Source: an uncultured bacterium (GTDB lineage: Bacteria > Patescibacteriota > Saccharimonadia > UBA4664). From it: a stretch of 64,000 nt of DNA. Every line of letters begins with the position of its first letter. The first letter of the stretch is position 1. The position numbers and the translations under genes are program-made. Below the pieces are notes generated by a model that saw only the letters and a program-made list of their open reading frames with translations, ran no database searches and had not been told where the DNA came from. Of this stretch, positions 4,600-40,916 are shown in pieces. The stretch is from the NCBI GenBank assembly GCA_963720265.1, contig CAVRET010000002.1, positions 456,704 through 520,703 of the forward strand. The letters run 5' to 3'.

Positions 4600-4654
4600 G
4601 CTCGCCTACAAATAAACATAACCATTACGCTCATTGTATCATCACGCAGCGAGT

Positions 4655-6034: not shown

Positions 6035-6042
6035 GTGTATCC

Positions 6043-26037: not shown

Positions 26038-26115
26038 GGCGGGAGTAGCTCAGTTGGTTAGAGCGACGGGTTGTGGTCCCGTAGGTCGTGGGTTCGAGCC
26101 CCATCTCTCGCCCCA
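26038..26115 (+). tRNA. tRNA-His (anticodon GTG) with genomically encoded G-1 and CCA
   Basis: G(-1)-GCGGGAG-TA-GCTC-AGTTGGTTA-GAGC-G-ACGGG-TTGTGGT-CCCGT-AGGTC-GTGGG-TTCGAGC-CCCAT-CTCTCGC-C-CCA. The extra 5' G pairs with C73. Confidence 0.9.
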
Positions 26116-27687
26116 AGCATTCATTTTCTTCGCGTCTGCGATTGCAGAAAACGCACTGTTAAGCTCAAAAACCAACGTTGAGCCTTCCAGTTGGGTGTTC
26201 GAAAGTACGAACTGGATGAGCCGCCTCTTTGTGCTGACAGGAGTTCTCTCGTTCAGGAAAATCTCGCTGGCTCGGCTAGCGACTTCTAAGACCTTGGACG
26301 CGGATACCACAAAGCGCTCGTTGCCCTGGCTGTGGTCTTTTATTTGCTCTAGCACATCAGCTTGGCGCTGCGCCTTTTCGCCAATCAGCTCTTCGAACAA
26401 CTCAGGCTTAATCTTGAATTTTGAGCGGTCTCGAAACATATCTTTAATCTCTTCATCCAGGCGCTTGTATTCTTTCTGCAGCGAGTCCACTTGGCGCTTG
26501 TAGTAATCTTGCTCGCCGTTAAACTCTCTCTCCAGGTCTTCGACCAGCTTTGGCAGCATGTCTCCTGGTATTCTGAACGACTCCAGTATTGCTACTATCT
26601 GGGCGTTGATTACCTTCTCGTTCACCCACTTCGCCCCGTGTTTACCCCCGTACTCTGTGCACTTTAGGTAGTAGTTGCCACCGTTCTTCGGCCCGTCGGT
26701 CGATACAGTGTAGCCGCATGTTCCGCACCTGAGCATATCTTTGAACAGGTATTCTTTTCCCACCAACTTGGTTCTCTGCTTTGAGCGCTTCGCATCTACT
26801 GCTTTCACCTTTTGCCACATCCACGGGTCAATCAGCGGCTCGTATTTGTGAGGGTATTGTTTGCCCTCGTAAACCATCGTGCCAGAGTAAAACGGGTTCA
26901 TCAGGAAATGCTGGACCTGGGTTTTCGGAATCGGCTTCTTCTTAATACTGGAGACCATGCCCTTTTTTCGCAGCTCTTTGGTGATTGCACCATACGACAA
27001 CCCTGCGGCCCGCATCTCGAAAGCCTCTCTTACGAACTGCCTCTTCTCAGGGTCTGCCTCAATATCTTTGATTGGGTCTCCCTTGGTAGTGTAGCCAACG
27101 ATAATGTTCCGGTAGCCAATTGGCGCTTTCCCTGGCCACTCCTGGTCGGCCAGCTTTTGCTCAAATTTGCGGCGTACATTGTCTCTTATTGCGGAACTAT
27201 AATAACTGGCCAGTGCTACGCCAATGTCTAAGCGGAATAGGTCGGCTGCTGGCGAATCTTTGTGTACAAACAAATTGTCCGCTGGAAAATGAAGCTCAAT
27301 TTTCCCCGCCCGCATCAACTTTGTCATGATGCTCTTTTCTTCACTTGAGCTATCGCGAGTGTAGCGGTCAATTTTGTCGAAAGTGACTATGACTAGGCCT
27401 TCCGCCTGCTTGAGCGGCTGAAGCACCAGCTCGCTGAAGGTTTTCCTGGCCTTGCCGTAATATGCCGACTCATCAAATTCCGCGTACGCGTAACGTTCCG
27501 GTCTTTTCTCCACATATTCGACCAGCCGTTTGCGCTGTGCTGGCAGCGCCGGCCTTTGGCTGGCATCAGAGACCCGTGCCACAGCTAAGATAAAACTGTC
27601 GCCGGATTCTGCGAGACGTTCCACCTTCTCTGCTTTCTCGGGCATGAAGCTGTCGCCTTCAAACATCGCCATTGCCTGTGTTTTCAT
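26050..27687 (-). CDS. Large serine recombinase (integrase)
   Basis: 545 aa. N-terminal resolvase catalytic domain '...ILAVARVSDASQRPALPAQ' (catalytic Ser), a recombinase domain, a zinc ribbon 'CGTCGY...C', and a coiled coil. The C-terminal 22 codons overlap the tRNA-His 3' end. Confidence 0.9.
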   Translation of the reverse strand: MKTQAMAMFEGDSFMPEKAEKVERLAESGDSFILAVARVSDASQRPALPAQRKRLVEYVEKRPERYAYAEFDESAYYGKARKTFSELVLQPLKQAEGLVIVTFDKIDRYTRDSSSEEKSIMTKLMRAGKIELHFPADNLFVHKDSPAADLFRLDIGVALASYYSSAIRDNVRRKFEQKLADQEWPGKAPIGYRNIIVGYTTKGDPIKDIEADPEKRQFVREAFEMRAAGLSYGAITKELRKKGMVSSIKKKPIPKTQVQHFLMNPFYSGTMVYEGKQYPHKYEPLIDPWMWQKVKAVDAKRSKQRTKLVGKEYLFKDMLRCGTCGYTVSTDGPKNGGNYYLKCTEYGGKHGAKWVNEKVINAQIVAILESFRIPGDMLPKLVEDLEREFNGEQDYYKRQVDSLQKEYKRLDEEIKDMFRDRSKFKIKPELFEELIGEKAQRQADVLEQIKDHSQGNERFVVSASKVLEVASRASEIFLNERTPVSTKRRLIQFVLSNTQLEGSTLVFELNSAFSAIADAKKMNAWGERWGSNPRPTGPQPVALTN

Positions 27688-27896
27688 TTGTTGCCTCCTT
27701 TATTCTTTTCAATGTCCGCAGCCTTCAGGCTTGCGTACTTTTCATCCAGCTCGTTTTGCCTATCTTGCTCAATCAGCAATTTCAGATAGCCAATCAACCC
27801 GTCTTGTTGCTGCGGCCCGTCAGGTCGCAACGCTTGTTTTGCTAGTTTTTCAAATCGCTTTTTTCTGCGGCTCATTTTGCCTCCGTTCGCACCCAA
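27684..27896 (-). CDS. Small basic/acidic helical protein upstream of and overlapping the integrase (possible recombination directionality factor)
   Basis: 70 aa. 4-nt overlap with the integrase start. No motif recognised. Confidence 0.35.
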   Translation of the reverse strand: MGANGGKMSRRKKRFEKLAKQALRPDGPQQQDGLIGYLKLLIEQDRQNELDEKYASLKAADIEKNKGGNK

Positions 27897-28136
27897 AAGG
27901 GGCGACTCCGGTTGACCCAGCTAGGCTCAAGAAGAGCTGTTACCGGCGGAGCCGCCCCTAAGGAGCGGTAAAGCCACTAAAAAACTTCTTGGGCAAAATC
28001 TAGCTTGGGTCAACGAATTAATTATAATCCGGTGAATCATAGATATCTAATAGACTTATCCACTTAGAAGAGGGAATCTAATTGGATATCCAATAGTATT
28101 TAGGTATCCATATAGACATCTATATAGCTATATAGA

Positions 28137-28529
28137 TTAGGGTGGTTTATTCGAGTCTTTTTCTAGCTCTTCAAAGGCTTTATCCATAAGTTCGTCCAGG
28201 TTCTCGATATCCTCATCGGTAGGGAGAATATCAGGAGTTTTCAGGGCCTCAACAGCTTCGAGTACAAGGCTCTCAATTTTCTTCCTCAGCACTGATTCTT
28301 TTGTCAGCTCAATCGGCTTGATGTAACCATTACCGCGCTTAAACGCCGGCATCTGGACCCACAAGTCCCCGTAGCGAGGCGAGCGGCGAACACTAATGCT
28401 GTTAATGAACAGCTCAATGTCCGGAAAGTTGACTTTAACGAGGTAATATTCAGCCTTGTCATCGCGGTAGTACACCTCTGCCGTAGCAAGGTCAAGGCTG
28501 AGGAAAATTTTAGTTGGCTGGTCGCTCAT
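28137..28529 (-). CDS. SpoVG-like protein (phage or plasmid-borne)
   Basis: 'VKVNFPDIELFINSISVRRSPRYGDLWVQMPAFKRGNGYIKPIEL' resembles the SpoVG core (hhhDIRVh..G.LFVAMPSKR..G...DIAHPI). Start uncertain. Confidence 0.4.
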   Translation of the reverse strand: MSDQPTKIFLSLDLATAEVYYRDDKAEYYLVKVNFPDIELFINSISVRRSPRYGDLWVQMPAFKRGNGYIKPIELTKESVLRKKIESLVLEAVEALKTPDILPTDEDIENLDELMDKAFEELEKDSNKPP

Positions 28530-28815
28530 TCGTACCATCCTCATGCTCATTTTTAACTTCAGAATGTTGCCCGCCGTACAGCCACGATTTCAACCTACGA
28601 GTTGCGTCGTGATACAGCCTGGGGTTCAATTCGATGCCGTCATCCCAATACAGTTCCACTACAGAGCGCAGTTCCGGCGAGTCCCAAAAAACAAAACCAA
28701 CCCGCCGCTGATTACTCCGGTCCAGGCCAATCGCTTTGAAGCCTTTGGCAGCCAGGACCGCAGCTAGCGGCAGGTCGGATGTAGTGAATTGTTTTTCAGC
28801 CAGTGCCATTCTCAT
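28510..28815 (-). CDS. DUF5659-like phage-associated protein
   Basis: 'FTTSDLPLAAVLAAKGFKAIGLDRSNQRRVGFVFWDSPEL' matches my recollection of DUF5659. Confidence 0.4.
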   Translation of the reverse strand: MRMALAEKQFTTSDLPLAAVLAAKGFKAIGLDRSNQRRVGFVFWDSPELRSVVELYWDDGIELNPRLYHDATRRLKSWLYGGQHSEVKNEHEDGTNERPAN

Positions 28816-28878
28816 CCTGCGTGATTACAGGTGTGAGCTTAGCCTAGTAATTTTCCGTGGTATAACCCCTAAATGAGT

Positions 28879-29571
28879 TCACTTACGTTTTGACTGGCGT
28901 TCAAATGTGCGAATAAGGCCAGGAATTTGTGTATAGTCGTAGATTCCTCCAAGCTCTTCCTCAATGCGGGCAGCAATCTCGCGGTTTGTAAGGTTGGGGT
29001 CTTCTTGCTTCAATTCTGCTGCTCGCCGTCCGTCTTCCAACCTTTCATCATCTAACGCTCTTATTTGGTGTACTCTTTTATGCTTCAGCGATGCCAGGTG
29101 CCAGCTCACGTCCTTCCACGCCGCTTTCCACTCACGGCTGTTAATGTTGGCATCAACATGCACTATTAGATAATCAAGTGGTTTACCCATATGGTCGCTT
29201 GAGCGGACGCCCACATTAGTTGTGGGCCGCAGTTTACTGCGGTCACCGTAGGTAATGAAATCCGTAATGAAAGAGTCCCAGAAAGGAGAACAGCGATGTT
29301 TGGCAACAAGCTTGGCAGTTGCGTTCTCAAGTAGAGTTGATGGCATACGGGCTAGTATTTTGTCGCCGTCCCAGTCTTTGCCAGCAGCAACGTATGCTTC
29401 TCTGTTGTGCGATAAAAAATAATCGTGGTCGAGGTCAACTCTTTCCTTATACCCGCCTGTCGGATAGCCGAGCCTTCTGCGCACTCGGTCCGCATCTTTG
29501 CGAAACTCTATGTTTTGCAAAAACGCCTCATACGCTTTCTCAGCGGAACTTTTTACTTTGGTGTCAGCCAT
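28879..29571 (-). CDS. hypothetical protein
   Basis: Start chosen at 'MADTKVK', which has a GGAG Shine-Dalgarno 6 nt upstream. 230 aa. No family recognised. Confidence 0.5.
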   Translation of the reverse strand: MADTKVKSSAEKAYEAFLQNIEFRKDADRVRRRLGYPTGGYKERVDLDHDYFLSHNREAYVAAGKDWDGDKILARMPSTLLENATAKLVAKHRCSPFWDSFITDFITYGDRSKLRPTTNVGVRSSDHMGKPLDYLIVHVDANINSREWKAAWKDVSWHLASLKHKRVHQIRALDDERLEDGRRAAELKQEDPNLTNREIAARIEEELGGIYDYTQIPGLIRTFERQSKRK

Positions 29572-29684
29572 TTTCATCTCCATCCTCATCTGGGCATATT
29601 CTCTCACGCCTGGTTGCCAACAGGGGTATCCGGAAGAATTCCTAGTCAATTCACGGCTTGCGGTTTACCTGTCAAAATAAAAAT

Positions 29685-30134
29685 ATGGGGGAGAAGTCAA
29701 CAAAAGTCGGCCGGCCAGCCGCGATAACAACGGCTTGTGTCCAAAAACTGGAACAGGCGTTTCGTGAGGGTTCGGACACGGCAACGGCCTGCCATCTATC
29801 TGGAATTTCGCGGTCTACATACTACCAACGTCTTGCCGACGACTCCGAGTTTTCGGACAAAATGCGGCTTGCGCAAGAGTGGCCAACTGCACTCGCAAGA
29901 AAAACGGTTGTCAGCGAAATTAACAAAGGCAACTTTACTGCCGCGCGCTGGTGGCTTGAGCGCAAGGCATCTGCCGAATTTGGCCAAACTCCGGCTACAG
30001 GTAAGCATCCCGAACCGGCTATCAACCTAACTCAGGCTCAGTGGGATGCAATGCAGCAAGCTTCAGAAGCTGCAATTCGGTTACTGCAGGGTGAGCCGGA
30101 CACAGGCTCGGGGGCTGGCAATCTCGTTGACTGA
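29685..30134 (+). CDS. HTH DNA-binding protein resembling a phage terminase small subunit
   Basis: 'VGRPAAITTACVQKLEQAFREGSDTATACHLSGISRSTYYQRLADDSEFSDKMRLAQE' is a typical TerS-like N-terminal HTH. Confidence 0.5.
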   Translation: MGEKSTKVGRPAAITTACVQKLEQAFREGSDTATACHLSGISRSTYYQRLADDSEFSDKMRLAQEWPTALARKTVVSEINKGNFTAARWWLERKASAEFGQTPATGKHPEPAINLTQAQWDAMQQASEAAIRLLQGEPDTGSGAGNLVD

Positions 30135-30336
30135 GGCAAAAATGACGCGCATACTTTTTGCGTTGACGTTAGACAGTAGTTTTTAGTTTCCGCGCGTTTT
30201 CGCGTGGTTGCGATTTGAGCCTGAATAGGCCGCAATCACCGAAAAATAGTAGGCTCAAACCTGCTGTCTGGCGTCAACAACCTAGGTGGTTGTGGCCTTT
30301 TTAATTGGCCCTCCCCGTTAATAAAGGAGGCGCGTC

Positions 30337-30723
30337 ATGGACATTCAGCCAGCCACAAAACCTAAACAAGTAGAGATGCCGCCCGACCAGGCTACGGGCA
30401 AAAAGGTGGCCAAAGGGGTGGCCGGAGGCGCTGCTGGGATTATTATGGGGGTCATCATCGGTATAGTAATGTTCATTGCCGGCCTCTTGCTCACGTTCAC
30501 CATCATTGGGGCAATTATTGGAATCCCGCTCATGATTGCAGCTTTTGTAACGCCGTTTGCGTTTGGCGGAGCGATGGCCAAACACGCAGCCACTGCAATT
30601 GAACTGACATGCCCGTACTGCGACAACAAGGTGTCATGGACAAAACGGAAAAAGGCTGGCGTTTGTAGGGTCTGCCAAAAGCGACTGATAATGAAGGGTA
30701 ACAAGCTTCAGGTTGTTGAGTGA
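30337..30723 (+). CDS. Membrane protein with a C-terminal zinc ribbon
   Basis: Strong Shine-Dalgarno (aaggagg). Two TM helices, then 'CPYCDNK...CRVCQK'. Confidence 0.65.
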   Translation: MDIQPATKPKQVEMPPDQATGKKVAKGVAGGAAGIIMGVIIGIVMFIAGLLLTFTIIGAIIGIPLMIAAFVTPFAFGGAMAKHAATAIELTCPYCDNKVSWTKRKKAGVCRVCQKRLIMKGNKLQVVE

Positions 30724-30870
30724 TGCCGGAGGAGAGTAAGAAATCGGCTGAGCGGTTTGTCTGGCACGAGGGGGATTACGAGCTTGTGCCCACGGAAGAA
30801 TTGGGACGTAGCAGGCAAAACAGACTCAACACGCAAAACCCAAAGGCGCGCGGTGAGAGAGAAAGCCCCG

Positions 30871-31965
30871 CTAGGCCTCCACTTTCCCCTCCAGGCCCTG
30901 GAAGCGCATCGCCCGCCTGAACCCTAATTTTTCCGCCTCTGCGACTGTTGAACAATATTTTTCGCCCAGCCTAGGCTTAATTTTTACTCGGTCATATTGC
31001 TGGTCAAACGGAAGGTGATAAATCTTCTCGCCAGTTGCCGGAGCAATATTGCACTTAATGCAGGCATACGGCTGGGGCAGCTTCTCCTGCTCCTTCATTT
31101 CAATCCCAAGTTCGTTGCCGAACCGCCGCGCCAGGTCCGAGACATTGGTTGTTGTGTAGAAGAGAGCACGCACATTCTCGGACCTGTGCTCATCGCGGTA
31201 TTTAAAAACGGTGCCGAAAAACTGAAAAATGTGCTTTTCGTGGAGTAATTTGAACCTTGACCAGTTCTTACATTGAACTACGACAGTCTCTTGGCCCTTC
31301 TTGGCTATCAGGTCACGCCCCAAGTCTTGGCGGCCCTTAATTATGCCCTCATAGCTCACGTCGTACCCCTGCTGCTCGTACACCGACCCAACGTAACGCT
31401 CGTACATTATGCCGATGTGCCATTTTGACTTACGCTTCTTCCAATAGTTATCCAATGCCACCTGGTTGCGCTCACTTGGGGAGAGCGTCTCGTACTGCTC
31501 TTTTGAGAGAAATAATGCGGCATTGTCTTTGGCCTCATCAACCTCAGGCGGCTCATCCGCTTCAACCAAATAACCCTCATCCGCACCAGTGCCATCAAAG
31601 TCCTCTCGTAGCTCGGCCAGCTCTGGCATGAGGGTTTCGTAGTCCTCAACCAGGTAGCGGTACATTCTGCGCTCGGCATCAGCTTCGCGCCGTTGCTTGG
31701 CTATCACCTGCAGTATGTCGCTGGCTTTTGGCGCAGGGTGGGCCTTGTATTTCAGCAGGTCAACGAGCTGCTTGTCCTGCAGTGCCAGATACTCTTCATA
31801 CGCCTTTGCCAGTGTCGGATACCCCTTGGCGTACTCATTCGCCATCTGAGCAATCTCGCGCCTCTGCTGGGCCAGTCTGGGGTAAGTGGCATCAATAAAC
31901 TTTTGTGCCTTTTCGTAGTCGGCCATGAGGCGGCGGAGTTGGTTTAAGAGCTGCTGTGGGTCCAC
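30871..31965 (-). CDS. Coiled-coil protein with an Mrr-type restriction-endonuclease catalytic domain (Mrr_cat) and a C-terminal Zn-finger
   Basis: 'WHIGIMYERYVGSVYEQQGYDVSYEGIIKGRQDLGRDLIAKKGQETVVVQCKNW' is the PD-(D/E)xK Mrr_cat pattern (D...D/E..QCK). C-terminal 'CIKCN...'. GTG start overlapping the stop of the upstream gene by 1 nt (TAGTG). Confidence 0.65.
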   Translation of the reverse strand: MDPQQLLNQLRRLMADYEKAQKFIDATYPRLAQQRREIAQMANEYAKGYPTLAKAYEEYLALQDKQLVDLLKYKAHPAPKASDILQVIAKQRREADAERRMYRYLVEDYETLMPELAELREDFDGTGADEGYLVEADEPPEVDEAKDNAALFLSKEQYETLSPSERNQVALDNYWKKRKSKWHIGIMYERYVGSVYEQQGYDVSYEGIIKGRQDLGRDLIAKKGQETVVVQCKNWSRFKLLHEKHIFQFFGTVFKYRDEHRSENVRALFYTTTNVSDLARRFGNELGIEMKEQEKLPQPYACIKCNIAPATGEKIYHLPFDQQYDRVKIKPRLGEKYCSTVAEAEKLGFRRAMRFQGLEGKVEA

Positions 31966-32489
31966 TAGCGATAGGCCTCATCAAGCTCCTGGAAAAACTG
32001 TCCAAGATAAAGTTCGTCCAGTCTTGGCGAGCCTGCTGGGCCAGTAAAGCCAAAGTCGCAAACGGGGTTTGTGCACCTGTAGCTGTAAATTCCAGCAGCA
32101 CCATTTTGGTATGACCTTTCAACTGTACCCTCCTGGCACTTCGGGCAGTGAATAACTTTCGACTCCCCGAAGTAGCTTTGCCGCTCAACAAACTTACCCA
32201 TTCCATAGCTTGAGAGATAGCGTAACTTGCGCTCAAGTTTCTCAACCGAAGTTGTGCTGAGCTTGTTCTCGCTTACTAGCTGTTGGATCTCAGCAAGTGT
32301 CGCCATGCGGTCAACCGGCTCCGGATTGGGAAGCTCCAGTGGTCGCGCCCCAGCCACACTAGGCTGGCTCCGACGCTGAGCCTTGTACCGGTTGGTTCTA
32401 TGCTCATCATAGCGCTCCCACAGCCAGCCTAGCCCGATTAGTAAGCCAATAATGATAATTACAGTCATGGTTCTGATGTTAAGATACAT
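31965..32489 (-). CDS. Membrane-anchored protein with a C-terminal double zinc ribbon
   Basis: N-terminal TM 'MTVIIIIGLLIGLGWLW'. 'HCPKCQEG...YRCTNPVCDFGF'. Translationally coupled to the downstream nuclease gene. Confidence 0.6.
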   Translation of the reverse strand: MYLNIRTMTVIIIIGLLIGLGWLWERYDEHRTNRYKAQRRSQPSVAGARPLELPNPEPVDRMATLAEIQQLVSENKLSTTSVEKLERKLRYLSSYGMGKFVERQSYFGESKVIHCPKCQEGTVERSYQNGAAGIYSYRCTNPVCDFGFTGPAGSPRLDELYLGQFFQELDEAYR

Positions 32490-32519
32490 CAGTCCACTTG
32501 CTTTGCTAAGGCTCCAATA

Positions 32520-33266
32520 TTACCAGGTGATTACGCTCACCCCCATCTCCTTTAGTTTCTTTTCTTCTTCGGCACTGAGGCCCAGCTCTCGGTTCTCCAT
32601 GTCAAAGCCGTAAGTAATGCCATAAATATTGTGCTTGAAAAAGAATGATTGCCGGCCATTGAGTTGCCTGGGCAAGCCTGAAAATTCGCATTTGTTCTCA
32701 GGGGTCCCAGGCACCACTACCCAGAAACCCTTAAAGTCCCGTACACCCATAATGATTTGGCGTGCTTCATCAAAGCGCGGCTGCAATACATATTCTGCCC
32801 CACGGTCCAGGCACATGAACTCATATGCAATTTTGTAAAGTGCCCTGGCGAAGTTCTTCGCATAATTGGTGGTCATTTTGTCGCCTCGAAGGTGAAGCCT
32901 AAAGTTTACCGACCCGTCAGGTTGCCTAGGCCCTTCTTCGTAATGTTTCGGCGTTGTTTTCGCCATCTCCATGTAAAGACCGCTGCGGTCCGGCTTAACC
33001 TGCATATTTAGGTTGGTCATTCGAACCTCAGGCATCTTACCTTCTTTGTTGGGAACCATAAAATAGGTCCGAAGGTAGGCAATAATCTTGTCTTTCACCA
33101 AAATGGAATCCAGGCCAGCCAGAACCGTATTGTTGCAGTTGTCGCAAACCGTACCCCGTGGCAGCACGTATTTGGTGTTACCAAGGCTCTCTGGCACAAT
33201 ATGCTCTTCCGATGTGAAGCTTCCGTGTTTGGTGAGGCAAAAAACGCACTGCATACCCCCGACCAT
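32520..33266 (-). CDS. HNH endonuclease domain protein with an uncharacterised C-terminal domain
   Basis: 'CVFCLTKHGSFTSEEHIVPESLGN...TVCDNCNN' is a classic HNH (CxxC...H...N...CxxC). Start set at the internal Met; the upstream ORF extension is low-complexity. Confidence 0.7.
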   Translation of the reverse strand: MVGGMQCVFCLTKHGSFTSEEHIVPESLGNTKYVLPRGTVCDNCNNTVLAGLDSILVKDKIIAYLRTYFMVPNKEGKMPEVRMTNLNMQVKPDRSGLYMEMAKTTPKHYEEGPRQPDGSVNFRLHLRGDKMTTNYAKNFARALYKIAYEFMCLDRGAEYVLQPRFDEARQIIMGVRDFKGFWVVVPGTPENKCEFSGLPRQLNGRQSFFFKHNIYGITYGFDMENRELGLSAEEEKKLKEMGVSVITW

Positions 33267-33326
33267 AATGTAATTCGTGGCAAATCTGCAATAAGATAGG
33301 GCTACGTTTGAAAGTTTTAGGGAGAA

Positions 33327-34187
33327 ATGCCGAGAATTAATCCGAAAAAAAGCGATAAACAGGCTGAGTTGGAGAAAGAACTCGATGCGCTGATTGAAAG
33401 CGGGGCTTCCAAGATTGATGGGTATAAGCTGCCCGCTGGAAAGCAAAATCGAAAAACACTTTTTACTCTCGCCACATATGCTGCGGTCAGTGACAGGGCC
33501 GAGGGGATTCTTCTTATGGCGCAAAATTACAAGCCCGACCCAGCTTTTATTATTTTGCGGTCAGCTCAAGAGGGCTATCTTAACCTATGCTACGTTCTAC
33601 AAACCGATAATGATGCGAGACTGCTGGCAATGTTCCATTCTTTGGCAGAGCAGGACGTTCGCCGAGTGAGGTTGCTAGATACGTACCTAAAAACACTAAC
33701 GACCAAATCGGGCGTGCCTGAAGGTCTAAGCAGTGATGCTCACGACGCAATTGCTCGCCTTGAAAAACAGCGCGACCAGGCCCAGCAAGAATTAGCGAAG
33801 CTCGAAGACTCTGAGTTTGCGGCCAAGAGCCTCCCTGACCTTGTCGAGCGCTTACGGCGCTATGATGCAGGGAGTAAAGCCGAGGGCAATGACACTCACC
33901 TGGAGCTGGATTATCGCATGATTTATTTTTTTCTATCTCAGCACACTCACCTTGGGCTTTCGGCTCTAGCGAATAATCTTGGTGAAACCGGCGAGACTGT
34001 TGATTTGAACCCAAAAGACCCTGTCTCCGATTGCGAAATTGTGCTCCACTCCGCATATGCAATTTTAGGCGACACTTTAATGCTGACACTGGCACAAATT
34101 GGCGCTTCAACTGATGGCGTGCTTGAGCAGATGAAGGAAGTTGCCAAGAGACTAAAGCCTGATACAAAAAGTAGCGCTAGCTCATGA
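33327..34187 (+). CDS. Hypothetical protein, first gene of a translationally coupled pair (lower-GC block)
   Basis: 286 aa. The stop overlaps the next start (ATGA). Helical, with no motif confidently recognised. Confidence 0.6.
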   Translation: MPRINPKKSDKQAELEKELDALIESGASKIDGYKLPAGKQNRKTLFTLATYAAVSDRAEGILLMAQNYKPDPAFIILRSAQEGYLNLCYVLQTDNDARLLAMFHSLAEQDVRRVRLLDTYLKTLTTKSGVPEGLSSDAHDAIARLEKQRDQAQQELAKLEDSEFAAKSLPDLVERLRRYDAGSKAEGNDTHLELDYRMIYFFLSQHTHLGLSALANNLGETGETVDLNPKDPVSDCEIVLHSAYAILGDTLMLTLAQIGASTDGVLEQMKEVAKRLKPDTKSSASS

Positions 34188-35152
34188 AGCGTTCAGCCTC
34201 GCAGAAGGTCCAGCTCATTACTAAGTCGCGTGAGGCAACTCTGGCTGCCGTTCAGCTATTCAATAATCCTCTAGCCAGTTTCAAAACAGAGTCCTTCATC
34301 GTTCTCAGTATGATTGCCTGGACTTACATGCTGCACGCGTACTATCGCGCAAAGGGCGTCGAGAACCGCTACTTTGAGCAAGGCCCAGTGCGAAGACGCT
34401 TTGTTCGCAACTCAGACAATAGTTACCGATATTGGGACTTAACAGAGTGCATAAAATCGGAACACTGCCCTCTTGACAGCAACACATCCAACAACCTGCT
34501 GTTCCTTATCGGACTACGCAACCAAATAGAGCACAACAGGCCCGAGGGTTTGGACTCTTACTTGTCTGCTCGCTACCAGGCGTGTATGTTGAACTTCAAT
34601 TTTTACATTAAGAAGCTGCACGGTGAAAAATATGGTCTAGATGACAACCTTACGCTCAGTCTGCAATTCGGCGAGCTTACCTACAACCAAGCGAATGTCA
34701 TAAAAAATAAGGAGAAGCTTATACCTGCCGGCATCAATTCATACATTGCCAGCTTTGACAGCAAATTAAGTGAAAACGAACGCAATAATGAGCGCTATGC
34801 GTACAGGTTGCTGTTTACCAAAACTTCAGCCAAACGCGAAGGTCAAGCTGACAGGGTTGTCGAGTTCCTTGACCCGAATTCCGAGCTAGCTAAGAACATT
34901 GATAAAGAGTATTGGGTAAAAGAGGAAAGAGAAAAGCCCAAATTTCGCCCAACTGACGTGGTCAGGGAAGTCCAAAAAGCAGGCTTCAGAGCGTTCAACA
35001 TCACAAAACACACAGATATGTGGAAGGCCCATGACGCAAAGAGTCTGGCAAAGGGGTACGGCGTTGAAGTGGCAAAGACTTGGTATTGGTACCAAAATTG
35101 GGTGGACTTGGTAATTCAGGAGTTATCCGAGGCGGGCAGAACTCAAATTTGA
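34184..35152 (+). CDS. DUF3644-like protein (a family I recall from abortive-infection and defence-island contexts)
   Basis: 'REATLAAVQLFNNPLASFKTESFIVLSMIAWTYMLHAYYRAKGVE...RYWDLTECI' matches my recollection of the DUF3644 N-terminal signature. 322 aa. Confidence 0.5.
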   Translation: MKRSASQKVQLITKSREATLAAVQLFNNPLASFKTESFIVLSMIAWTYMLHAYYRAKGVENRYFEQGPVRRRFVRNSDNSYRYWDLTECIKSEHCPLDSNTSNNLLFLIGLRNQIEHNRPEGLDSYLSARYQACMLNFNFYIKKLHGEKYGLDDNLTLSLQFGELTYNQANVIKNKEKLIPAGINSYIASFDSKLSENERNNERYAYRLLFTKTSAKREGQADRVVEFLDPNSELAKNIDKEYWVKEEREKPKFRPTDVVREVQKAGFRAFNITKHTDMWKAHDAKSLAKGYGVEVAKTWYWYQNWVDLVIQELSEAGRTQI

Positions 35153-35340
35153 CTATGACAGCACAGTTTTAAACCGAATATCGGCTCCAGGAAGCCGTTA
35201 TTTTGTTGTTTACATCTTTAACCCGTATAGGGCTTCGAACACCAGAATAAGTTCTTTTCGAGCCGAAGGCGAAAGCACACTCTTGAGAGGGGTTATTTCA
35301 AAGTTTTTAACAACAGATAGGGAAAGATTACAATAACGTC

Positions 35341-36132
35341 ATGAAATTACCCATCATGGCCAATGTAACCTTTAAAACTCCTCACGGCTTATTGCAGCTT
35401 CAAGGCGCACCGGATATAGGCCACTTTAACCAGCGATTGAAGGCCTATTTTGAAGATGAATTCAAGAATCCAGACGCGCTGTCCTCTTACTCAAATTTTC
35501 AAAAGATTTTAAACAAAAAGGCAAAAGAGGTATCTCATTTAAGGATTTACGATTTTGAAGCTGAACAAAGGGTAGGCGAGTTAGTGGTTGTATCTGCAAT
35601 AGCAGCTACGTTAAACCACATTCACGGCATGGCACTTATACCAGGATGGCAGAGGTCAGGGCAGCAAGTGATCATGGAGCAAGAGTTCGGCAAAAAGAGC
35701 TGGGATGGATTTGTGTATGAGACCCCTACGGATGGTACCGATAAGGCTTTTCCAAATTTCGTAGAGGTAAAATCAACTATGGTAAACCCAAGTGAAGACG
35801 TAATGAGCCCGAATGAATTGATGAACAGCAGACTCGAACAGTACAGAAAACACTTTCAATCTTCTGACACAATCTGTGCAATATTCATCATGCCCTATAC
35901 TGCCCCTGGAGAGCGGCTTCGATTCGACCTTAAAGACGCTACGGAAAAACTTAACAATGTGGTTGCGGATGGCGCTATGGGTAGTATCTGTCTGCTCAGC
36001 TTTCCGACCAATGAGAGCGGACAGACGGTAATGACCATTCATTGCTATCTAGTAAACAAAAACCCAAAGCTTGGTAAGAATGGAAAAATTGATAACGTCA
36101 GTTTAGGAAAACTTGAGTTAGCGGACTTTTAA
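35341..36132 (+). CDS. hypothetical protein (AT-rich gene)
   Basis: 263 aa. Clean ORF. No family recognised. Confidence 0.55.
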   Translation: MKLPIMANVTFKTPHGLLQLQGAPDIGHFNQRLKAYFEDEFKNPDALSSYSNFQKILNKKAKEVSHLRIYDFEAEQRVGELVVVSAIAATLNHIHGMALIPGWQRSGQQVIMEQEFGKKSWDGFVYETPTDGTDKAFPNFVEVKSTMVNPSEDVMSPNELMNSRLEQYRKHFQSSDTICAIFIMPYTAPGERLRFDLKDATEKLNNVVADGAMGSICLLSFPTNESGQTVMTIHCYLVNKNPKLGKNGKIDNVSLGKLELADF

Positions 36133-36168
36133 GATTATAGCGATGGTGCGTTAGGAGAGGCGATTACT

Positions 36169-36245
36169 GACCGAAACCTAATATCATTCACCATCCGTGC
36201 AATCTCTCCGTTCGCTGTTCGAAACTTGAACCATAGCTCGCCCCA
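36169..36245 (+). repeat. Repeat A: att-like imperfect direct repeat ending in the tRNA-His 3' core
   Basis: gaccgaaacctaatatcattcaccatc...aatctc...gttcgaaacttgaaccatagctcgcccca. Shares 'ctcgcccca' with tRNA-His 26107-26115. Confidence 0.7.
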
Positions 36246-36350
36246 AAGAACTTATGCTTAAAAAGGTGTTAACTCGCCTTTTTTGTTGCCAAAAGCAAGG
36301 ACGCCCTGGTTGGGCGTCCCGCTAATGCAGGAGCCCAACCAGGGCGTAGT

Positions 36351-37481
36351 TCAGGCGGCCTCGAGGACGAGGTTCGCCAGTTCGGACAGGTCGTGCCGGT
36401 TGCCCTGCCGCCAGCCGAGGTGGTAGGCCTCGTAGACCGGCGGGTCGTTCGGCCGGCCCAGGGTGTTGGGCACAGCGACCCGGTCGCTGGCAACGATCGC
36501 GCCCTCGTAACCGTAGAAGTACTTCAGCGCGCCGGGCAGGCCCAGGGCGAGGTCTTCGGGCGACGAGCACTGGTCGTTGTTGCAGCAGGGCAACGGCTGG
36601 CCAAGCACCACCACCGAGGTGTCGGGGTGCTGCTGGTACAACTCGATCGCCGCGTCCGAGTTCAGCGCCGGCAGGAGCTGGATGGTCGGCAGGTCGGGGA
36701 AGGCGGCCAGGATGGCTGTCTGCCACACTGGGTCCGCCTCGGCCACGATGACCTTGGTGACGTTCACCCAGGCCCGGTCGGGCTCGACCTGCACGAAACC
36801 GAGCAGGTCGCGGAGGTACTCCTCGAGCAAGCCGCCCTTGAAGGGCTGCCCGTCGAATTCGTCCTCCACCGGCCCTCGCAACGCCTTGAGCAGTCGCCGC
36901 CGCAGGCCCCGGATGAGGCCGTAGTGCGCCAGCAGCTCGTAGACGGCGGTGTTGTAAAGCCGGTGGTTCTTGTGGTACCACTTCAGGCTCGGCACGCGGC
37001 CGTAGAGGTCCTCGTCCATGTCGCACGTGCAGTTGCCGTCCCGGTCGGGGGCGAGGCCGCTGGCGAAGGCGTTGTGGACCTCGGAGGGCCGACGGGTCGC
37101 GGCGAACTTCTCGAACGTCGCCAGCCAGCCCAGCACTTCCGTGAGGGCCTCCTGCTCGCGCAGAAGATCGATCATCCGGTAGAGATACCACGCGCCGCCG
37201 CTGGGGTCCTCGGGCCGAGGCTTGAGCTGACGTACAGCGAGTGCCGCCTTGACGTCGCCCTGCTCCCTGGCGGCCTTGAATGCACGGGCGTGCTCTTTGG
37301 CCTCCTCGGTCCAGGGGTACTGGTCATCGAACGGCAGGGGCTCAGTGTTGATCGCCAGCGTCAGGCTGATGCTGTAGCGCCGCATCACCCTCCGCAGCAT
37401 GGCGAGCATCCGGTCGACGGACGCGAGCCGGCGCCGCATGTGATCGAGCGTCGGGGTGGACGTGACGAGGGTCTCGCTCAT
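36351..37481 (-). CDS. Hypothetical protein, strongly GC-rich single-gene cassette between repeats A and B
   Basis: 376 aa with normal composition. The overlapping ORFs in other frames (36393..37487 +, 36322..37191 -) are R/G/V/P-rich artefacts of high GC. Confidence 0.55.
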   Translation of the reverse strand: MSETLVTSTPTLDHMRRRLASVDRMLAMLRRVMRRYSISLTLAINTEPLPFDDQYPWTEEAKEHARAFKAAREQGDVKAALAVRQLKPRPEDPSGGAWYLYRMIDLLREQEALTEVLGWLATFEKFAATRRPSEVHNAFASGLAPDRDGNCTCDMDEDLYGRVPSLKWYHKNHRLYNTAVYELLAHYGLIRGLRRRLLKALRGPVEDEFDGQPFKGGLLEEYLRDLLGFVQVEPDRAWVNVTKVIVAEADPVWQTAILAAFPDLPTIQLLPALNSDAAIELYQQHPDTSVVVLGQPLPCCNNDQCSSPEDLALGLPGALKYFYGYEGAIVASDRVAVPNTLGRPNDPPVYEAYHLGWRQGNRHDLSELANLVLEAA

Positions 37482-37616
37482 AGCTAAGCGTCACCTCCCT
37501 TTCTGGATAGGAACGGAACAACATTACTGTAGAACTAGGAAATATCATAACACATAATGACAAAAATTACAAGTATAAGCGCTGGCAGTACTTCACTTTC
37601 GGCTCAACTCAGCACT

Positions 37617-37696
37617 GAGCGGAACCGAATATCATTCACCATCGCCAAAATCTCGCTCAAACACTGGGTTCGAAACGTGAACCATACCTCGCCCCA
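37617..37696 (+). repeat. Repeat B (same family as A)
   Basis: gagcggaaccgaatatcattcaccatcgccaaaatctcgctcaaacactgggttcgaaacgtgaaccatacctcgcccca. Confidence 0.7.
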
Positions 37697-37958
37697 TTGC
37701 AATTATAGAAATAATAACTTCACAGAGCCATTAGTTTGTTTAATCGGGCTCAACCCCAAAAGCTACTTTCGAGCCAACTTTCGAGCCAACAATACTTGCA
37801 ATTTTGATAAAAACATGCTAATGTAATAAGCATTCGATCGTGAGATTGGATAATTTTGACATGGATTTGGGCCGGATTATTGCTCCACACCCGTGTGGCA
37901 ATAACCCGGCCCAGGATAATAGGATATCCAGGCCAGCGCTCTAGAAAGGATTCGCACC

Positions 37959-38495
37959 ATGAGCGCATCACACCTAACCCGCCCCGCCCGTCAGGATATG
38001 GTGGATCGGACGATCGACGACCTCTACCGGCTCCTGGGCATCGGCCGAGCGGACATCTTCGAAACGGAGACCTTGCTCCAGAGGGCATACGAGGGCTTGC
38101 CTAAGTACCCCGACGACAAATACTTCCAAATCTCGGTTGCGTGGCCGTACGTCAGCCGCGATGTCACCGAACTGCTACGGCACTTCAACGAGCCCGAGAA
38201 CATGTGGGACCGACACCGGCAGCTTGCTGCCATTTGCCTGGTTCTACGCATGCAGGCCCGGGCTCTGGAGCGGCCGCTCTTCGAGCCGATCGACCACTCA
38301 CAGTGGATCTACCTGGGTTCGATGCGTACCGATGGGGGCCTCGTCGACCTGTGGGGCGCCCGCGACTGGGAGACTGTCGACGTCCGTTGGGCGCAAGGAA
38401 CCCTCAGGCGCACTGGTGCGACGACTTCCCCGGACCTTCGGATCCGCGAGGCGTACCGTCGGCTCCAGCGCGCCTACCACGGCCCCGATATCTGA
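37959..38495 (+). CDS. Hypothetical protein, single-gene cassette between repeats B and C
   Basis: 178 aa. GC-rich. No family recognised. Confidence 0.5.
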   Translation: MSASHLTRPARQDMVDRTIDDLYRLLGIGRADIFETETLLQRAYEGLPKYPDDKYFQISVAWPYVSRDVTELLRHFNEPENMWDRHRQLAAICLVLRMQARALERPLFEPIDHSQWIYLGSMRTDGGLVDLWGARDWETVDVRWAQGTLRRTGATTSPDLRIREAYRRLQRAYHGPDI

Positions 38496-38589
38496 TCCAT
38501 GTCATGCCCGCGCCCCGGTGCTCGTTGCCGGGCCGGGCCTGGCCTGAACTTTGAATCAAACATTCAAATTTCAGGGCAGGCTCAACACC

Positions 38590-38669
38590 GACCGAAACCG
38601 AATATCGTTCACCATCTTCAAAATCTCGCCAGCAAATCGGGTTCGAGACGCGCACATTAGCTCGCCCCA
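38590..38669 (+). repeat. Repeat C (same family)
   Basis: gaccgaaaccgaatatcgttcaccatcttcaaaatctcgccagcaaatcgggttcgagacgcgcacattagctcgcccca. Confidence 0.7.
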
Positions 38670-38881
38670 TTTAGCATTTATTGCGGCAATAGCCGCATTT
38701 TTCTCCTCTAGCTACATGGAACTATCATTGTTTTAGGGCAAGTCCAAGACCGTATCACTGAAACCCTCAATTTGCGCGCAATTAGTGCGCGACTTATTGA
38801 AAAGCAAACCCGTTAGTTCTATAGTTTCGCGTACGCCCCCGGATGAGAGGATCGTTTGGTGTTCGTAGACATGAGATCAAG

Positions 38882-39349
38882 ATGACCTGGCTGTCCAGGG
38901 AATCGGGCCTGTCCCGCCTCGTACTGTTCATAATCGCGGTGCACATGACAGCTACTTGGCTGATTGTGCATTGGCTCGCTACGGGCCAGCAGTCAGCCGC
39001 GCTCACGTTGCTTCTGCCCGAGTTCGGCTGCGCGCTGTTCGTTGGGGTGATGGACGTCGCGGGCTTGGGTTCGGTCAAGGACATCGCTACCGAGGATGCC
39101 CACGGCCGTGCAGCCAGAATACTCGCGATCGTAGGGCCCGGTGTACTGGCTGTGCTCGTCTGTGTCATCGCTACCACGGCCATTCTGGATGCGGAGCATT
39201 ACCACGCCCTCGGTGGCATCCAGTGGGTCTTCGCCACCGTGTTCCTCATTGGAACTATCACTATGATCGGCTGGGCCTGCTTCACCCTTATAGCCTGGCT
39301 GATCTGGATCGCGATTCCGCCGCCGGATGAAGACATGCGGCGTACGTGA
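38882..39349 (+). CDS. Hypothetical polytopic membrane protein
   Basis: 4-5 predicted TM helices. Start uncertain (ORF-track start is 38843). Confidence 0.45.
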   Translation: MTWLSRESGLSRLVLFIIAVHMTATWLIVHWLATGQQSAALTLLLPEFGCALFVGVMDVAGLGSVKDIATEDAHGRAARILAIVGPGVLAVLVCVIATTAILDAEHYHALGGIQWVFATVFLIGTITMIGWACFTLIAWLIWIAIPPPDEDMRRT

Positions 39350-39584
39350 GACCCAGATGGTACTCGTGAGTACACTGTAGCCCGGTAACAACAACCTACC
39401 CCGCAAGACGCCAAAGAGCGAACAAACCGTTCGGCCTGGTGGTCGGCGGGGCGTTCGCTGCCAGCCCGGCAACACTGATCCCAACTACACATTGGCCAAC
39501 GTCGGCAACAACAAGCAGATAAATCCATCTATTTGTGATCATTAATTTGGCCTTAGTACAGTGCGAATACCTTCCACGGTGCGG

Positions 39585-39599
39585 CCCCAAAGAACTTAT
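39585..39599 (+). repeat. Partial copy D of the junction sequence 'ccccaaagaacttat' seen at the end of repeat A
   Basis: 15-bp identity with 36241-36255. A possible distal att remnant or original attB flank. Confidence 0.4.
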
Positions 39600-39603
39600 A
39601 TTT

Positions 39604-40257
39604 CTAACGGCCGTCAACAAGTCGGCCGCATAGCATATAGAATCCGAACACAATCAACCAAATTGATTGCGGATAGGCCACCACCCGTTCTATTCCGCCG
39701 GCGCCAAGTCCCAGGTATAGGTGAGTTTCAGTCAGCAGCAGTGCGCACAGTGCGATCACGCCGGAGAAAATTGTGTAGTATTTCAGGGACACAGGTAATT
39801 TCAGGGACAATCCCAGAATTATCAGACTTACATTCCCGCTAATGAAAACCAGCGATGCGCCAAGCGTGTGCGATACGATGTTTACATTTTCCGGGTACAG
39901 TCCTACAAGCAACGTACCCACACCCGCGATTACCATAAGGCCAAACCCGACGGCCGCACCACGGTATGCTGTAAATGCACGGTATATCAGAACCGACCCC
40001 GCGATCATCGTAATCCCTAGCACAATAAAGGAGCCGTTCATCAACACATGCTGCGGCGAACAAACAAGTCGACCCGAATATCGCCCACAGTCGGAATTGC
40101 CCAGGTCGCTGATCAGGTTGTTAGACAGGCTGTAATGCCAAGGCCAGGCCTGTGCAACTAGAATCTGAACCACATAGTATTGAATACTCAGCAGCCATAG
40201 GACGGCCCCGATGCATGGATGGTGGCGCACAAATGTGTCTATATACTTTGATCTCAT
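39604..40257 (-). CDS. Hypothetical polytopic membrane protein
   Basis: 217 aa with about 6 TM helices. Confidence 0.55.
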   Translation of the reverse strand: MRSKYIDTFVRHHPCIGAVLWLLSIQYYVVQILVAQAWPWHYSLSNNLISDLGNSDCGRYSGRLVCSPQHVLMNGSFIVLGITMIAGSVLIYRAFTAYRGAAVGFGLMVIAGVGTLLVGLYPENVNIVSHTLGASLVFISGNVSLIILGLSLKLPVSLKYYTIFSGVIALCALLLTETHLYLGLGAGGIERVVAYPQSIWLIVFGFYMLCGRLVDGR

Positions 40258-40403
40258 AATCCAAGGCTAACATGCATGTTGCCGTCTAGAACACAAAACA
40301 TAAGTTCGAATACCCTCAACGCTGAGGGCGCATAATTCTTATACTTAAAGAGGCCTTGCTGAGCCTCTTTTTTAAGATGCGGTGAAAATATCAACAGTCG
40401 CCT

Positions 40404-40916
40404 TTACCCGAAGTGCTGCACAAACAAAAAGGGGTGGAAGCTGGCACTGAACGTGCCAGCTTCCACCACATCGGATAAATTTACCGCCCTAAGCGGAGGT
40501 GAGGGGCTCGCCGCGACCCCGAGCGCGCGCTCCACTATCGAGAGGAACTGCTCGGCGCATTGCAGATGGCGATCAGCCTCTTTTGCAGATGCCCCGCTCG
40601 GCAACCCAGCCTCTGTGGCTGCACGCTTGGGAGCACAGCCCGCAAAGTAGGCCGCCCACTGGGCGAGGTCGGGCCCCGCCTCGGCAAGCCTAGGTTCCAG
40701 CTCGGCGAGTTGCTCCCATACGTTGCGCATGCTCCTTCTGCGTCGTGGAGAAGGCACGCCCTTGGCTGCCACCACTGCTGCAACGGCACGAAGCGCCGCG
40801 AAATGCGCTGCCACATATCGGGCGCGGGGTGCTGAATCGCCGGCCGCATCGGCAAGGCTCATACGCGCCTTTCGTAGCAGGCTGGGCACAGCCGGCGACA
40901 CAATCTCATTTGTCAT
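40404..40916 (-). CDS. HEPN-domain protein, SAV_6107-like
   Basis: 'ARYVAAHFAALRAVAAVVAAKGVPSPRRRRSMRNVWEQLAELEPRLAEAGPDLAQWAAYFAG' resembles the actinobacterial SAV_6107 HEPN family as I recall it. GC-rich. Confidence 0.45.
   Translation of the reverse strand: MTNEIVSPAVPSLLRKARMSLADAAGDSAPRARYVAAHFAALRAVAAVVAAKGVPSPRRRRSMRNVWEQLAELEPRLAEAGPDLAQWAAYFAGCAPKRAATEAGLPSGASAKEADRHLQCAEQFLSIVERALGVAASPSPPLRAVNLSDVVEAGTFSASFHPFLFVQHFG

Follow-up and report, generated by a model that had tools for sequence, protein, structure and literature searches.

The tRNA-His Locus and Its Resident Recombinase

A row of genes held between imperfect direct repeats lies downstream of a tRNA-His gene in a 64,000-nucleotide stretch of DNA from an uncultured bacterium of the Patescibacteriota (GenBank assembly GCA_963720265.1, contig CAVRET010000002.1, positions 456,704 to 520,703), which is termed, over its full length, the window here. 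Read from the tRNA, the row consists of tRNA-His, an element encoding a large serine recombinase (LSR), the repeat R0, a gene for 263 amino acids (aa), R1, a 376-aa gene, R2, a 178-aa gene, R3, a 168-aa gene, R4, a DUF998 gene, and R5 (Table 1). Within the window, a single resident LSR element precedes five further attR-type junctions, which are decayed to different degrees and separated by short foreign one-gene segments. Judged by sequence comparison, the repeats are probably attR-type junctions of LSR elements at the 3′ end of tRNA-His, the attP of these elements being located inside the LSR gene, and the row was probably built by accretion.

The 3′ end of tRNA-His, ...GGGTTCGAgccccatctCTCGCCCCA, constitutes the B (left) half of the attachment site, and attL is located at about 26090-26140. 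The catalytic domain of the LSR (PF00239, E 3e-10, residues 35-181) carries the motif ..VARVSDASQR.., and this match and those to PF07508 (E 3.5e-14) and PF13408 (E 4.6e-6) all exceed the curated cutoffs. The open reading frame (ORF) of the LSR has no stop inside the element; it crosses attL in frame and reads the complement of tRNA-His for 21 codons, so that the integrated form ends in ...KKMNA before the junction and in WGERWGSNPRPTGPQPVALTN plus a stop after it, the latter being the reverse complement of tRNA-His. The core CTCGCCCCA occurs at both ends of the element, at 26107-26115 and in R1-R3, and the LSR gene adjoins one of these ends. No Phage_integrase domain was detected in the sizeable ORFs from 26 to 47.6 kb, where the serine recombinase is the only recombinase, which agrees with the description of an array without a tyrosine integrase in an earlier note made from the sequence alone. 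A PDB sequence search with the LSR gave no match at 1e-3. Small ORFs of 56-71 aa with the motif NLIGYxKLLxELD hold a place corresponding to that of the 70-aa ORF directly upstream of the LSR in other loci (L015 9791-9985, L016 9813-10004, L018 9722-9937, and L019 9834-10004), with some copies extending over the recombinase start, and this conserved position makes the 70-aa ORF a candidate partner, directionality factor, or regulator of the recombinase.

The Repeat Unit and Its Copies in the Window

Three direct repeats on the plus strand (36169-36245, 37617-37696, and 38590-38669), to which the earlier note had drawn attention, were recovered at exactly these positions by a repeat search (as families of 44-91 nt), and they stand far above chance. 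Allowing one mismatch, three occurrences of the head motif AATATCATTCACCATC were counted, while about 0.33 matches with at most three mismatches are expected in the window; the 30-nt T-arm/core pattern has an expectation of about 0, and the 16-nt junction GCCCCAAAGAACTTAT, found exactly at 36240 and 39584, one of about 0.01. R1-R3 all terminate in CTCGCCCCA, the last nine bases of tRNA-His, as the same note had stated. Its length estimate of about 80 bp was too short, since alignment of all copies revealed a unit of about 190 nt, which comprises a head of about 85 nt, the core CTCGCCCCA, and a terminator-like tail extending about 90 nt beyond CCCCA. The T-arm-like hairpin that it had proposed is present only in R1, in R2, and in copies of the loci L004, L015, and L013; the conserved part is GGTTCGAAAC. 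The tail is constructed of NNNNNCTTATGnTTAAATAA, a hairpin GGCTCC...GAGCC, a T-run, and then ..CTTTCGAACCCAATAAGCAnTTTCGAAC; the pairing of the hairpin is kept through a compensatory U-A/C-G exchange in four sequences, and AAG(A/C)ACTTAT is the most frequent tail start in other arrays.

With a profile of the full unit, six copies were found in the window, of which R1-R3 are intact and R0, R4, and R5 degenerate; the profile was built partly from R1-R3, for which the E-values are circular. In R0, about 90 nt comprising the remaining head, the core, and the tail start have been deleted, and what is left matches the tail hidden Markov model (HMM) with E 1.5e-14 and positions 14-42 of the head HMM, with a terminator-like hairpin at 35182-35197. 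R4, of which the upstream head is barely recognizable, corresponds to the partial junction copy noticed earlier near 39585-39599 and holds the second exact 16-mer. R5 consists of GTTCGAA, 22 nt, TAATTCTTATACTTAAAGA, the hairpin, and a T-run. The most decayed copies in the window are the distal R4 and R5, which fits insertion at the tRNA-proximal end, and other arrays show a nonmonotonic trend. None of the repeats was matched by a tRNA or any other Rfam family even at E up to 1, and ARAGORN likewise reported none.

Table 1. Coordinates of the features of the tRNA-His locus in the window
Feature	Position	Strand	Description or evidence
tRNA-His (GTG)	26039-26115	+	ARAGORN; Rfam tRNA, 65.6 bits
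LSR gene, 545 codons as integrated	26050-27687	-	Pfam Resolvase, Recombinase, and Zn_ribbon_recom
Small conserved ORF, 70 aa	27684-27896	-	Directly 5′ of LSR, overlaps LSR start
LSR element proper, ~9 kb, 49.6% GC (guanine plus cytosine)	26116-35154		Cargo in the rows below; Pfam, PADLOC, GC content
Mrr-type nuclease, LSR-element cargo	30871-31965		Pfam
HNH, LSR-element cargo	32520-33524		Pfam
DUF5677, LSR-element cargo	33327-34187		Pfam
DUF3644/PDC-S19, LSR-element cargo	34184-35152		PADLOC PDC-S19, E 5e-128
R0, dead junction	35155-35246	+	First ~24 nt of head (minus strand ...DIRFKTVLS and stop) joined to tail hairpin
Unit gene, 263 aa, 42.7% GC	35341-36132	+	No family match; promoter-like site 35307-35334
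R1	36149-36335	+	Head 36157-36245 (minus strand WGELWFKFRTANGEIARMVNDIRFRSVI...), core 36237-36245, diverged tail
Unit gene, 376 aa, 68% GC, orphan	36351-37481	-	One 82%-identical homologue among 5.8 billion proteins
R2	37599-37786	+	Head 37598-37696 (WGEVWFTFRTQCLSEILAMVNDIRFRSVLS and stop), core 37688-37696, full tail 37698-37782
Unit gene, 178 aa, 63.7% GC	37959-38495	+	No family match
R3	38571-38754	+	Head 38570-38669 (WGELMCASRTRFAGEILKMVNDIRFRSVLSLP and stop), core 38661-38669, tail terminator-like hairpin 38682-38697
Unit gene, 168 aa (155 aa by the gene caller), hydrophobic	38843-39349	+	Membrane-like by eye, also termed a membrane protein in the earlier note; no family match
R4, decayed junction	39584-39613	+	GCCCCA, consensus tail start AAGAACTTAT, and hairpin; full-unit HMM positions 100-129, E 0.053
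DUF998 membrane protein gene	39604-40257	-	Pfam; flanked by R4 and R5
R5, weak tail-type remnant	40300-40407 (profile match 40331-40407)	+	Full-unit HMM positions 104-180, E 0.004

The Head as the Severed 3′ End of the Recombinase Gene

On the minus strand, the head reads W at the junction, followed by GELMCTFRTRFAGEILAMVNDIRFRSVL and a stop. Nine head copies from five genomes read, in frame from the core, WGEL(M/W)(C/F)xFRTxxxxEIxxMVNDIRFRSVL with a stop within a few codons, three further copies preserve the same peptide with a stop or a changed base in the first codons, and two more are frameshifted; the tail contains stops in this reading frame. The single-base codon differences among the nine heads are 172 synonymous versus 122 nonsynonymous in the head frame, as against 41:292 and 55:214 in the other two frames, and the sole head indel, located in R1, is of 3 nt and keeps the frame. 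This coding-type divergence implies that each head evolved within a working recombinase gene.

The origin of the peptide became apparent from the 407 homologues of the LSR, many of which read into tRNA 3′ ends. A conserved W stands at the junction point in all 120 homologues among the matches listed, and the junction W-x6-(F/L)RT is family-wide (P0005-P0124; window 26050-27687). The ends of the homologues listed fall into two classes, namely the reverse-translated tRNA ends of integrated copies (WLRRPDSNRRP, WYxRQDSNLRP, WGE-stop, and others) and the intact ends W-x6-FRTECRxEILxLxxDxxFRSLV found in Kitasatospora, Streptomyces, and several metagenomic proteins, with a related form WGELLDEFRT in Frankia. 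A profile built from eight intact ends only was run against 6521 six-frame peptides of the window and the loci, and its 18 best matches were repeat heads (E 5e-8 to 0.04). When the intact member P0028 was aligned by tblastn, residues 5-488 covered the LSR gene of the window, ending at 26113, and residues 488-519 resumed at each head exactly from the core (37696-37601 at R2). Judged from these alignments, the head is the authentic last ~33 codons of an LSR family gene, cut off by integration, and attP is placed inside the LSR gene because the heads are LSR C-terminal coding sequence in frame with the LSR ORF across attL. The proposal that the repeats are recombination-site junctions tied to the upstream LSR and tRNA-His is borne out by this match. 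The accompanying argument, that conservation of the non-tRNA part speaks for functional sites, is not supported, since the head is recombinase coding sequence and its conservation alone is no proof that each copy works as a site.

TGG, the codon of the conserved Trp, is complementary to the CCA of the tRNA, and in the heads of tRNA-His junctions the FRT codons TTTCGAACC are the complement of the T-loop-like GGTTCGAAA, so the C-terminal peptide of the family is partly dictated by the DNA site. Because integrated copies end in the reverse-translated 3′ ends of several different tRNAs, the LSR family as a whole appears, by sequence, to be specialized for tRNA 3′ ends. Its nearest named relatives belong to Kitasatospora, Streptomyces, and Frankia (46-57% identity). 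A search with the head profile among 1.84 billion representatives returned only four short ORFs lying over other R units and one spurious repeat protein; the public gene calls P0125-P0128 (56-73 aa) are tail plus head read-throughs in other genomes and are likely annotation artefacts of the repeat family.

Architecture of the Attachment Sites

The motif GGGTTCGA is spaced from CTCGCCCCA by 9 nt in tRNA-His and by 14 nt in every head. In serine integrases, attP has the zinc-ribbon-domain motif 5 bp farther out from the center than attB does (Rutherford et al. 2013, PMC3783163). Because the offset of GGGTTCGA equals this 5-bp shift, the tRNA is assigned as a B-type and the head as a P-type left half-site. 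If the motif positions of PMC3783163 (about 12-19 and 17-24 bp) apply here, the crossover would fall in CTCGCC within the shared core. An inverted motif, TTCGAACA, was found on the LSR-side half-site of L015 at 11-18 nt, the place expected for P′.

The nature of the right half was revealed by L014, in which tRNA-His stands directly 5′ of a matching 85-nt tail that is followed by a gene, a repeat, a gene, and a repeat, with no recombinase between. Because the tRNA-His of L014 carries that tail, the tail is identified as the sequence natively located 3′ of the tRNA gene, its terminator. With L014, a recombinase-free tRNA-His/tail junction, for which the earlier note had suggested looking, does exist in a relative. 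Each repeat is a canonical attR, which is made up of a P-type left half, the core, and a B′ right half provided by the native tRNA-His terminator flank.

Related Arrays and Elements in Other Genomes

A pattern scan of species-representative genomes yielded one true relative, the Patescibacteria metagenome-assembled genome L004, besides three chance matches, and a metagenome scan added four further contigs (L008, L012, L013, and L014). Repeat arrays are present in at least five other Patescibacteria-type contigs. By profile search, they contain 2-4 copies per contig, 0.4-2.8 kb apart and in a single orientation, and the copies are confined to two places, downstream of tRNA-His and the distal end of LSR elements; the tail hairpin alone occurs at a few other places in L004, L013, and L017. 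The claim of exactly one gene per unit holds for the window, where the R1-R2, R2-R3, and R3-R4 intervals each contain exactly one plausible gene, and fails in L013, which has a three-gene unit and a two-gene toxin-antitoxin unit. No unit common to two arrays was detected in an all-against-all ORF comparison apart from the overlap of L012 with L013.

Simple LSR elements of 8-9 kb, comparable to that of the window, are contained in L015 and L016. In L015, where the tRNA cluster His-Pro-Gly-Arg is the same as in the window, the element harbors attL in tRNA-His, the LSR gene, small conserved ORFs, a helix-turn-helix gene, cargo including an Mrr-type nuclease, and one head plus tail about 9 kb away. 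The element of L016 is similar and possesses a pair of an AAA_15 ATPase and a UvrD-type helicase (Gabija-like, 4102-7402); from their gene content, the LSR elements of the window and L016 look like carriers of defense genes. L017 carries a truncated LSR and further repeat remnants, while the more distant LSR homologues of L018 and L019 read into tRNA-Asn, the attR of these relatives not being found within 10 kb in either locus. The recognizable cargo of other arrays is accessory and includes an APH-type kinase, DUF397, Fic, an NmrA-type protein, and a PEP-utilizer domain protein, together with a presumed ParE/RelB-like pair, to which gene size and arrangement point.

Head and tail, each of about 85-90 nt, are 70-88% identical between genomes. 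R3 is 83% identical to the L014 and L008 copies, 77% to R2, and 69% to R1, and duplication of the repeats in situ was rejected since copies of the same array are not nearest relatives. Because the heads of one array are not each other's nearest relatives and differ mostly by synonymous changes, they are considered to stem from separate LSR elements. A series of separate site-specific events is thereby supported, the earlier note having listed serial integration of related mini-elements among its explanations, and related arrays exist elsewhere.

Contig Ends as a Hint of Current Activity

Two Logan contigs of the run ERR11523669, from the same strain, are 100% identical to the window, and Logan graphs use 31-mers (PMC12424806). 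Contig L020 corresponds to window 26086-36979 and starts exactly 30 nt before the last tRNA base, as an out-branch directly after CCCCA gives, while contig L001 starts exactly at 37688, the first core base of R2, as an in-branch there gives; L020 passes R0 and R1 unbroken, and L001 passes R3 unbroken. One junction between tRNA-His and the tail of R2, with a crossover in CTCGCCCCA, would explain both contig ends as well as the bases at which the sequences first differ, namely a versus t following CCCCA and t versus c preceding CTCG. It would be the attB left, in some reads, by excision of 26116-37696 between attL and R2, and these contig ends suggest that the attachment site is probably in use today. 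A co-occurring strain or a copy of the 30-mer elsewhere in the genome is a possible other source of the ends.

Proposed Origin of the Array

In the proposed mechanism, an LSR with attP inside its last ~33 codons would target tRNA-His with its tail, and recombination within CTCGCCCCA would join the LSR body to the tRNA, giving attL at 26116, while the severed 3′ end of the LSR gene (the head) would be carried to the far end of the element, where it abuts the native tRNA-His terminator flank (the tail). Different LSR elements would have reached one tRNA-His at different times. Excision assisted by a recombination directionality factor could pair attL with any attR, near or far, so that intervening segments would be left behind or taken along, and units without an LSR would be passengers mobilized in cis rather than autonomous cassettes. 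Older units would end up farther from the tRNA and decay, and a junction deletion such as that of R0 would fuse a unit to the element as new cargo.

Several observations weigh against this account. Canonical reactions conserve the number of attR sites, so that the first tail-gene-head unit is left unexplained, even if excision at an alternative attR followed by transfer can move and accumulate units. A tblastn search with five family members found no debris of the recombinase body inside the units, and for the same reason the possibility that the units are decayed whole elements was rejected. The attP form was not encountered: no full-length LSR ending in ...MVNDIRFRSVL is present among the 1.84 billion representatives, a chimeric query of LSR end and head gave zero attP candidates, and viral contigs yielded neither attP nor a circular form in two DNA pattern scans and one protein scan. 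The right half-sites, that is, P′ of the window and the tails, have no clear shifted motif except in L015, and the dyad symmetry of the reconstructed attP and attB is weak (at best 14/28 positions). Moreover, the excision junction was deduced from contig ends rather than read directly, and no reciprocal circle junction is implied by the Logan contigs.

The units might alternatively be autonomous mini-cassettes, circles of tail, gene, and head with a head/core/tail site that the LSR re-inserts in trans at a regenerated tRNA-His/tail junction. All units have the same pair of ends and carry their own promoter-like and terminator-like signals, in L014 the tRNA-His is followed by tail, gene, and repeat with no recombinase, and the tail is similar over its initial 10-20 nt to the half-site on the LSR side (..CTTATgTTTAAA in the tail, ..CTTATtTTCGAA in L015), all of which would suit such circles. 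However, the spacing of CTTAT differs by 1 nt between the tails and the LSR-side half-sites in the junction sequences, and the circle site would be an attR (P plus B′), which in canonical serine-integrase chemistry is paired with attL and not with attB (PMC3783163). Circular junctions were not found, no unit occurs in two different arrays, and the coding-type divergence of the heads is expected of working recombinase genes and not of self-evolving sites. Autonomous cassettes are consequently regarded as unlikely, and independent movement of single-gene units in trans as less likely than mobilization in cis. That the LSR, its C-terminus being exchanged with each change of partner site, acts on head/core/tail sites as on attP, so that single units are excised and re-inserted at tRNA-His in a serine, double-strand analogue of the integron, is similarly doubtful; if true, it would provide ultra-small Patescibacteria with a dedicated gene-capture platform, in which the recombinase tail doubles as a DNA site and an on/off switch.

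Homology-driven shuffling offers a further route, in which the junctions are made by the LSR and units are gained or lost by RecA, for example through natural transformation, the ~190-nt repeats serving as portable homology. Saccharibacteria are naturally competent, head and tail offer the between-genome identity given above, and R0 represents a non-site-specific deletion within a unit. Copies of the same array are only 69-77% identical and form a poor RecA substrate, however, and the contigs break exactly at core boundaries and not anywhere in the repeat, which makes shuffling quite improbable. Almost no credence, the least of all, is given to explanations that do without recombination, in which the copies would be an ordinary intergenic repeat, a structured RNA, or decayed duplicates of tRNA-His. 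The length of about 77-80 nt to CCA equals that of a tRNA, and the tail hairpin does occur alone at the few places mentioned, but the copies stand in one orientation only, downstream of tRNA-His or at the far end of an LSR element, and related short ORFs form only four clusters among the 1.84 billion representatives. A structured RNA or tRNA pseudogene was rejected on the basis of the Rfam and ARAGORN results, the codon pattern of the head, and its match to the recombinase C-terminus, and the same findings contradict the widespread intergenic repeat unrelated to tRNA-His that had been named as a possible refutation. Accretion of LSR elements at tRNA-His is retained as the probable origin.

Comparison with Known Systems

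Compared by description (PMC3146451), the closest system appears to be that of the Dehalococcoides ssrA islands with DsiB. In these islands, a ~540-aa serine recombinase is located at attL, its ORF runs into the 3′ end of a small RNA gene, and its stop lies outside the island (McMurdie et al. 2011, PMC3146451). Tandem downstream islands are bounded by direct repeats of the ssrA 3′ end with extra conserved sequence beside the repeat, and about half of the islands have no integration module and were read as cis-mobilizable accreted units; it was also suggested that the recombinase is perhaps complete only on the circle or beside an island supplying the missing 3′ fragment (PMC3146451). The LSR ORF that crosses attL into the RNA gene, the tandem repeats of the RNA 3′ end, and the units without a module are shared with the window. 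In contrast, the target here is tRNA-His instead of tmRNA (ssrA), the host has a ~1.1-Mb genome of Patescibacteria type, the units are mostly single genes (0.8-1.4 kb), every internal junction seen is of the head/native tail (attR) type, and the conserved flank consists of the last ~33 codons of the recombinase itself with a T-loop mimic shifted by 5 bp. No second Resolvase-domain protein, ParB, or Mom was found in 26-35 kb, and the six-gene module of Dehalococcoides including DsiA was not encountered there.

Composites of the staphylococcal cassette chromosome (SCC), including SCCmec, resemble the array in their large serine recombinases (CcrAB/CcrC), their use of the 3′ end of a conserved gene (rlmH/orfX), their tandem arrays with short direct repeats, and their recombinase-less pseudo-SCC units that are able to move with a neighbor. 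They differ in that a single recombinase, a tRNA target, and an attP inside the recombinase gene are found here, and the recombinase is not CcrA, CcrB, or CcrC, against whose NCBIfam models it scored 42, 38, and 25 bits with cutoffs of 900, 700, and 900, respectively. As in the cis-mobilizable elements (CIMEs) of Streptococcus integrative and conjugative elements and the tycheposons of Prochlorococcus (bioRxiv 10.1101/2020.12.28.424599), repeated integration at a single tRNA would displace older elements outward, past events are marked by remnants and partial tRNA copies, and integrase-less units persist between att sites. The recombinases of those systems are almost entirely tyrosine recombinases (910/937 in tycheposon-type elements; bioRxiv 10.1101/2020.12.28.424599), and their repeats are mere tRNA fragments, not pieces of an integrase gene.

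The earlier note had likened the sites to integron attC sites. With integrons and clusters of attC sites lacking integron integrases (CALINs), the array does share a row of mostly single-gene units closed by related sites at a fixed insertion point, as well as a diverse cargo, often orphan or toxin-antitoxin. However, no IntI tyrosine recombinase is present, and the sites are sequence-conserved attR sites with recombinase codons, whereas attC sites are imperfect palindromes, variable in sequence but conserved in structure, that recombine as folded single strands; the sole conserved stem here is the terminator-like hairpin in the tail. Unlike promoterless cassettes in one orientation that are read from the promoter Pc, the units are oriented in either direction and are equipped with promoter-like and terminator-like sites of their own. 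The analogy is not supported, given that the head is a severed recombinase 3′ end (coding-type conservation, the in-frame indel, and the match to intact homologues) and that units lie both ways; the array is probably a site-specific accretion at tRNA-His, and it is not an integron. Tandem islands driven by a serine recombinase at a t(m)RNA gene are a known kind, from whose described examples the array differs in, among other features, the tRNA-His target, the mostly single-gene units, and the flank formed by the recombinase C-terminus.

Significance

The array marks a gene-exchange hotspot in a ~1.1-Mb genome of Patescibacteria type, and it reveals a tangible, site-specific route by which genes are acquired and lost in such bacteria, in whose reduced genomes few mobile elements have been characterized. 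Defense genes (PDC-S19, Mrr, and Gabija-like), toxin-antitoxin pairs, kinases, and many orphan genes travel by this route. In this family of serine recombinases, protein and DNA site are one sequence (W corresponds to CCA, and FRT to a T-loop mimic with a 5-bp shift); the enzyme is consequently shortened by integration and made whole again by excision, which offers a possible built-in directionality switch. The family targets highly conserved tRNA ends and may yield new integrases for genome engineering. For annotation, it is relevant that such arrays break short-read assemblies and give spurious small ORFs, as exemplified by P0125-P0128.

Unit Genes and Neighboring Features

The unit genes had no match in Pfam, NCBIfam, or PADLOC, and the AlphaFold2 models of the 376-aa and 178-aa products reached predicted local distance difference test scores of 38 and 39, respectively. 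The genes are found on both strands with their own promoter-like and terminator-like signals; the GC content of the array cargo ranges from 43 to 68%, compared with 55% for the window, and several unit genes are at 59-68%. The DUF998 gene is probably a further, old unit between R4 and R5.

The exact product of the 376-aa gene is absent from the gene-position index, yet the protein is in the collection (P0001, ncbi/ena). Its sole homologue, P0002, is located on a 161-kb contig (JGI 3300047160), where about 20 small genes, of which hardly any has a Pfam match, follow one another over ~16 kb, and its neighbors differ in size from those in the window; this contig may be a much longer array. The Logan contig L020 ends inside the 376-aa gene, at a GTGGTACCAC palindrome at 36979.

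In or beside the arrays, HEPN_SAV_6107 (window 40404-40916, minus strand) and DUF397 (L014 125-400, plus strand) were observed, both being Pfam families named or described from Streptomyces proteins. Together with the high-GC unit genes and the actinobacterial relatives of the recombinase, they are a possible hint of genetic exchange with actinobacteria.

Beside the tRNA cluster, window 25260-25730 encodes on the minus strand a 156-aa protein with a hydrophobic N-terminus, a body that is rich in Gly, Asn, and Tyr and contains NYGGGSIYY repeats, and an end rich in Cys and Trp. A spurious 168-aa ORF and a weak match to Rfam isrG arise on the opposite strand.

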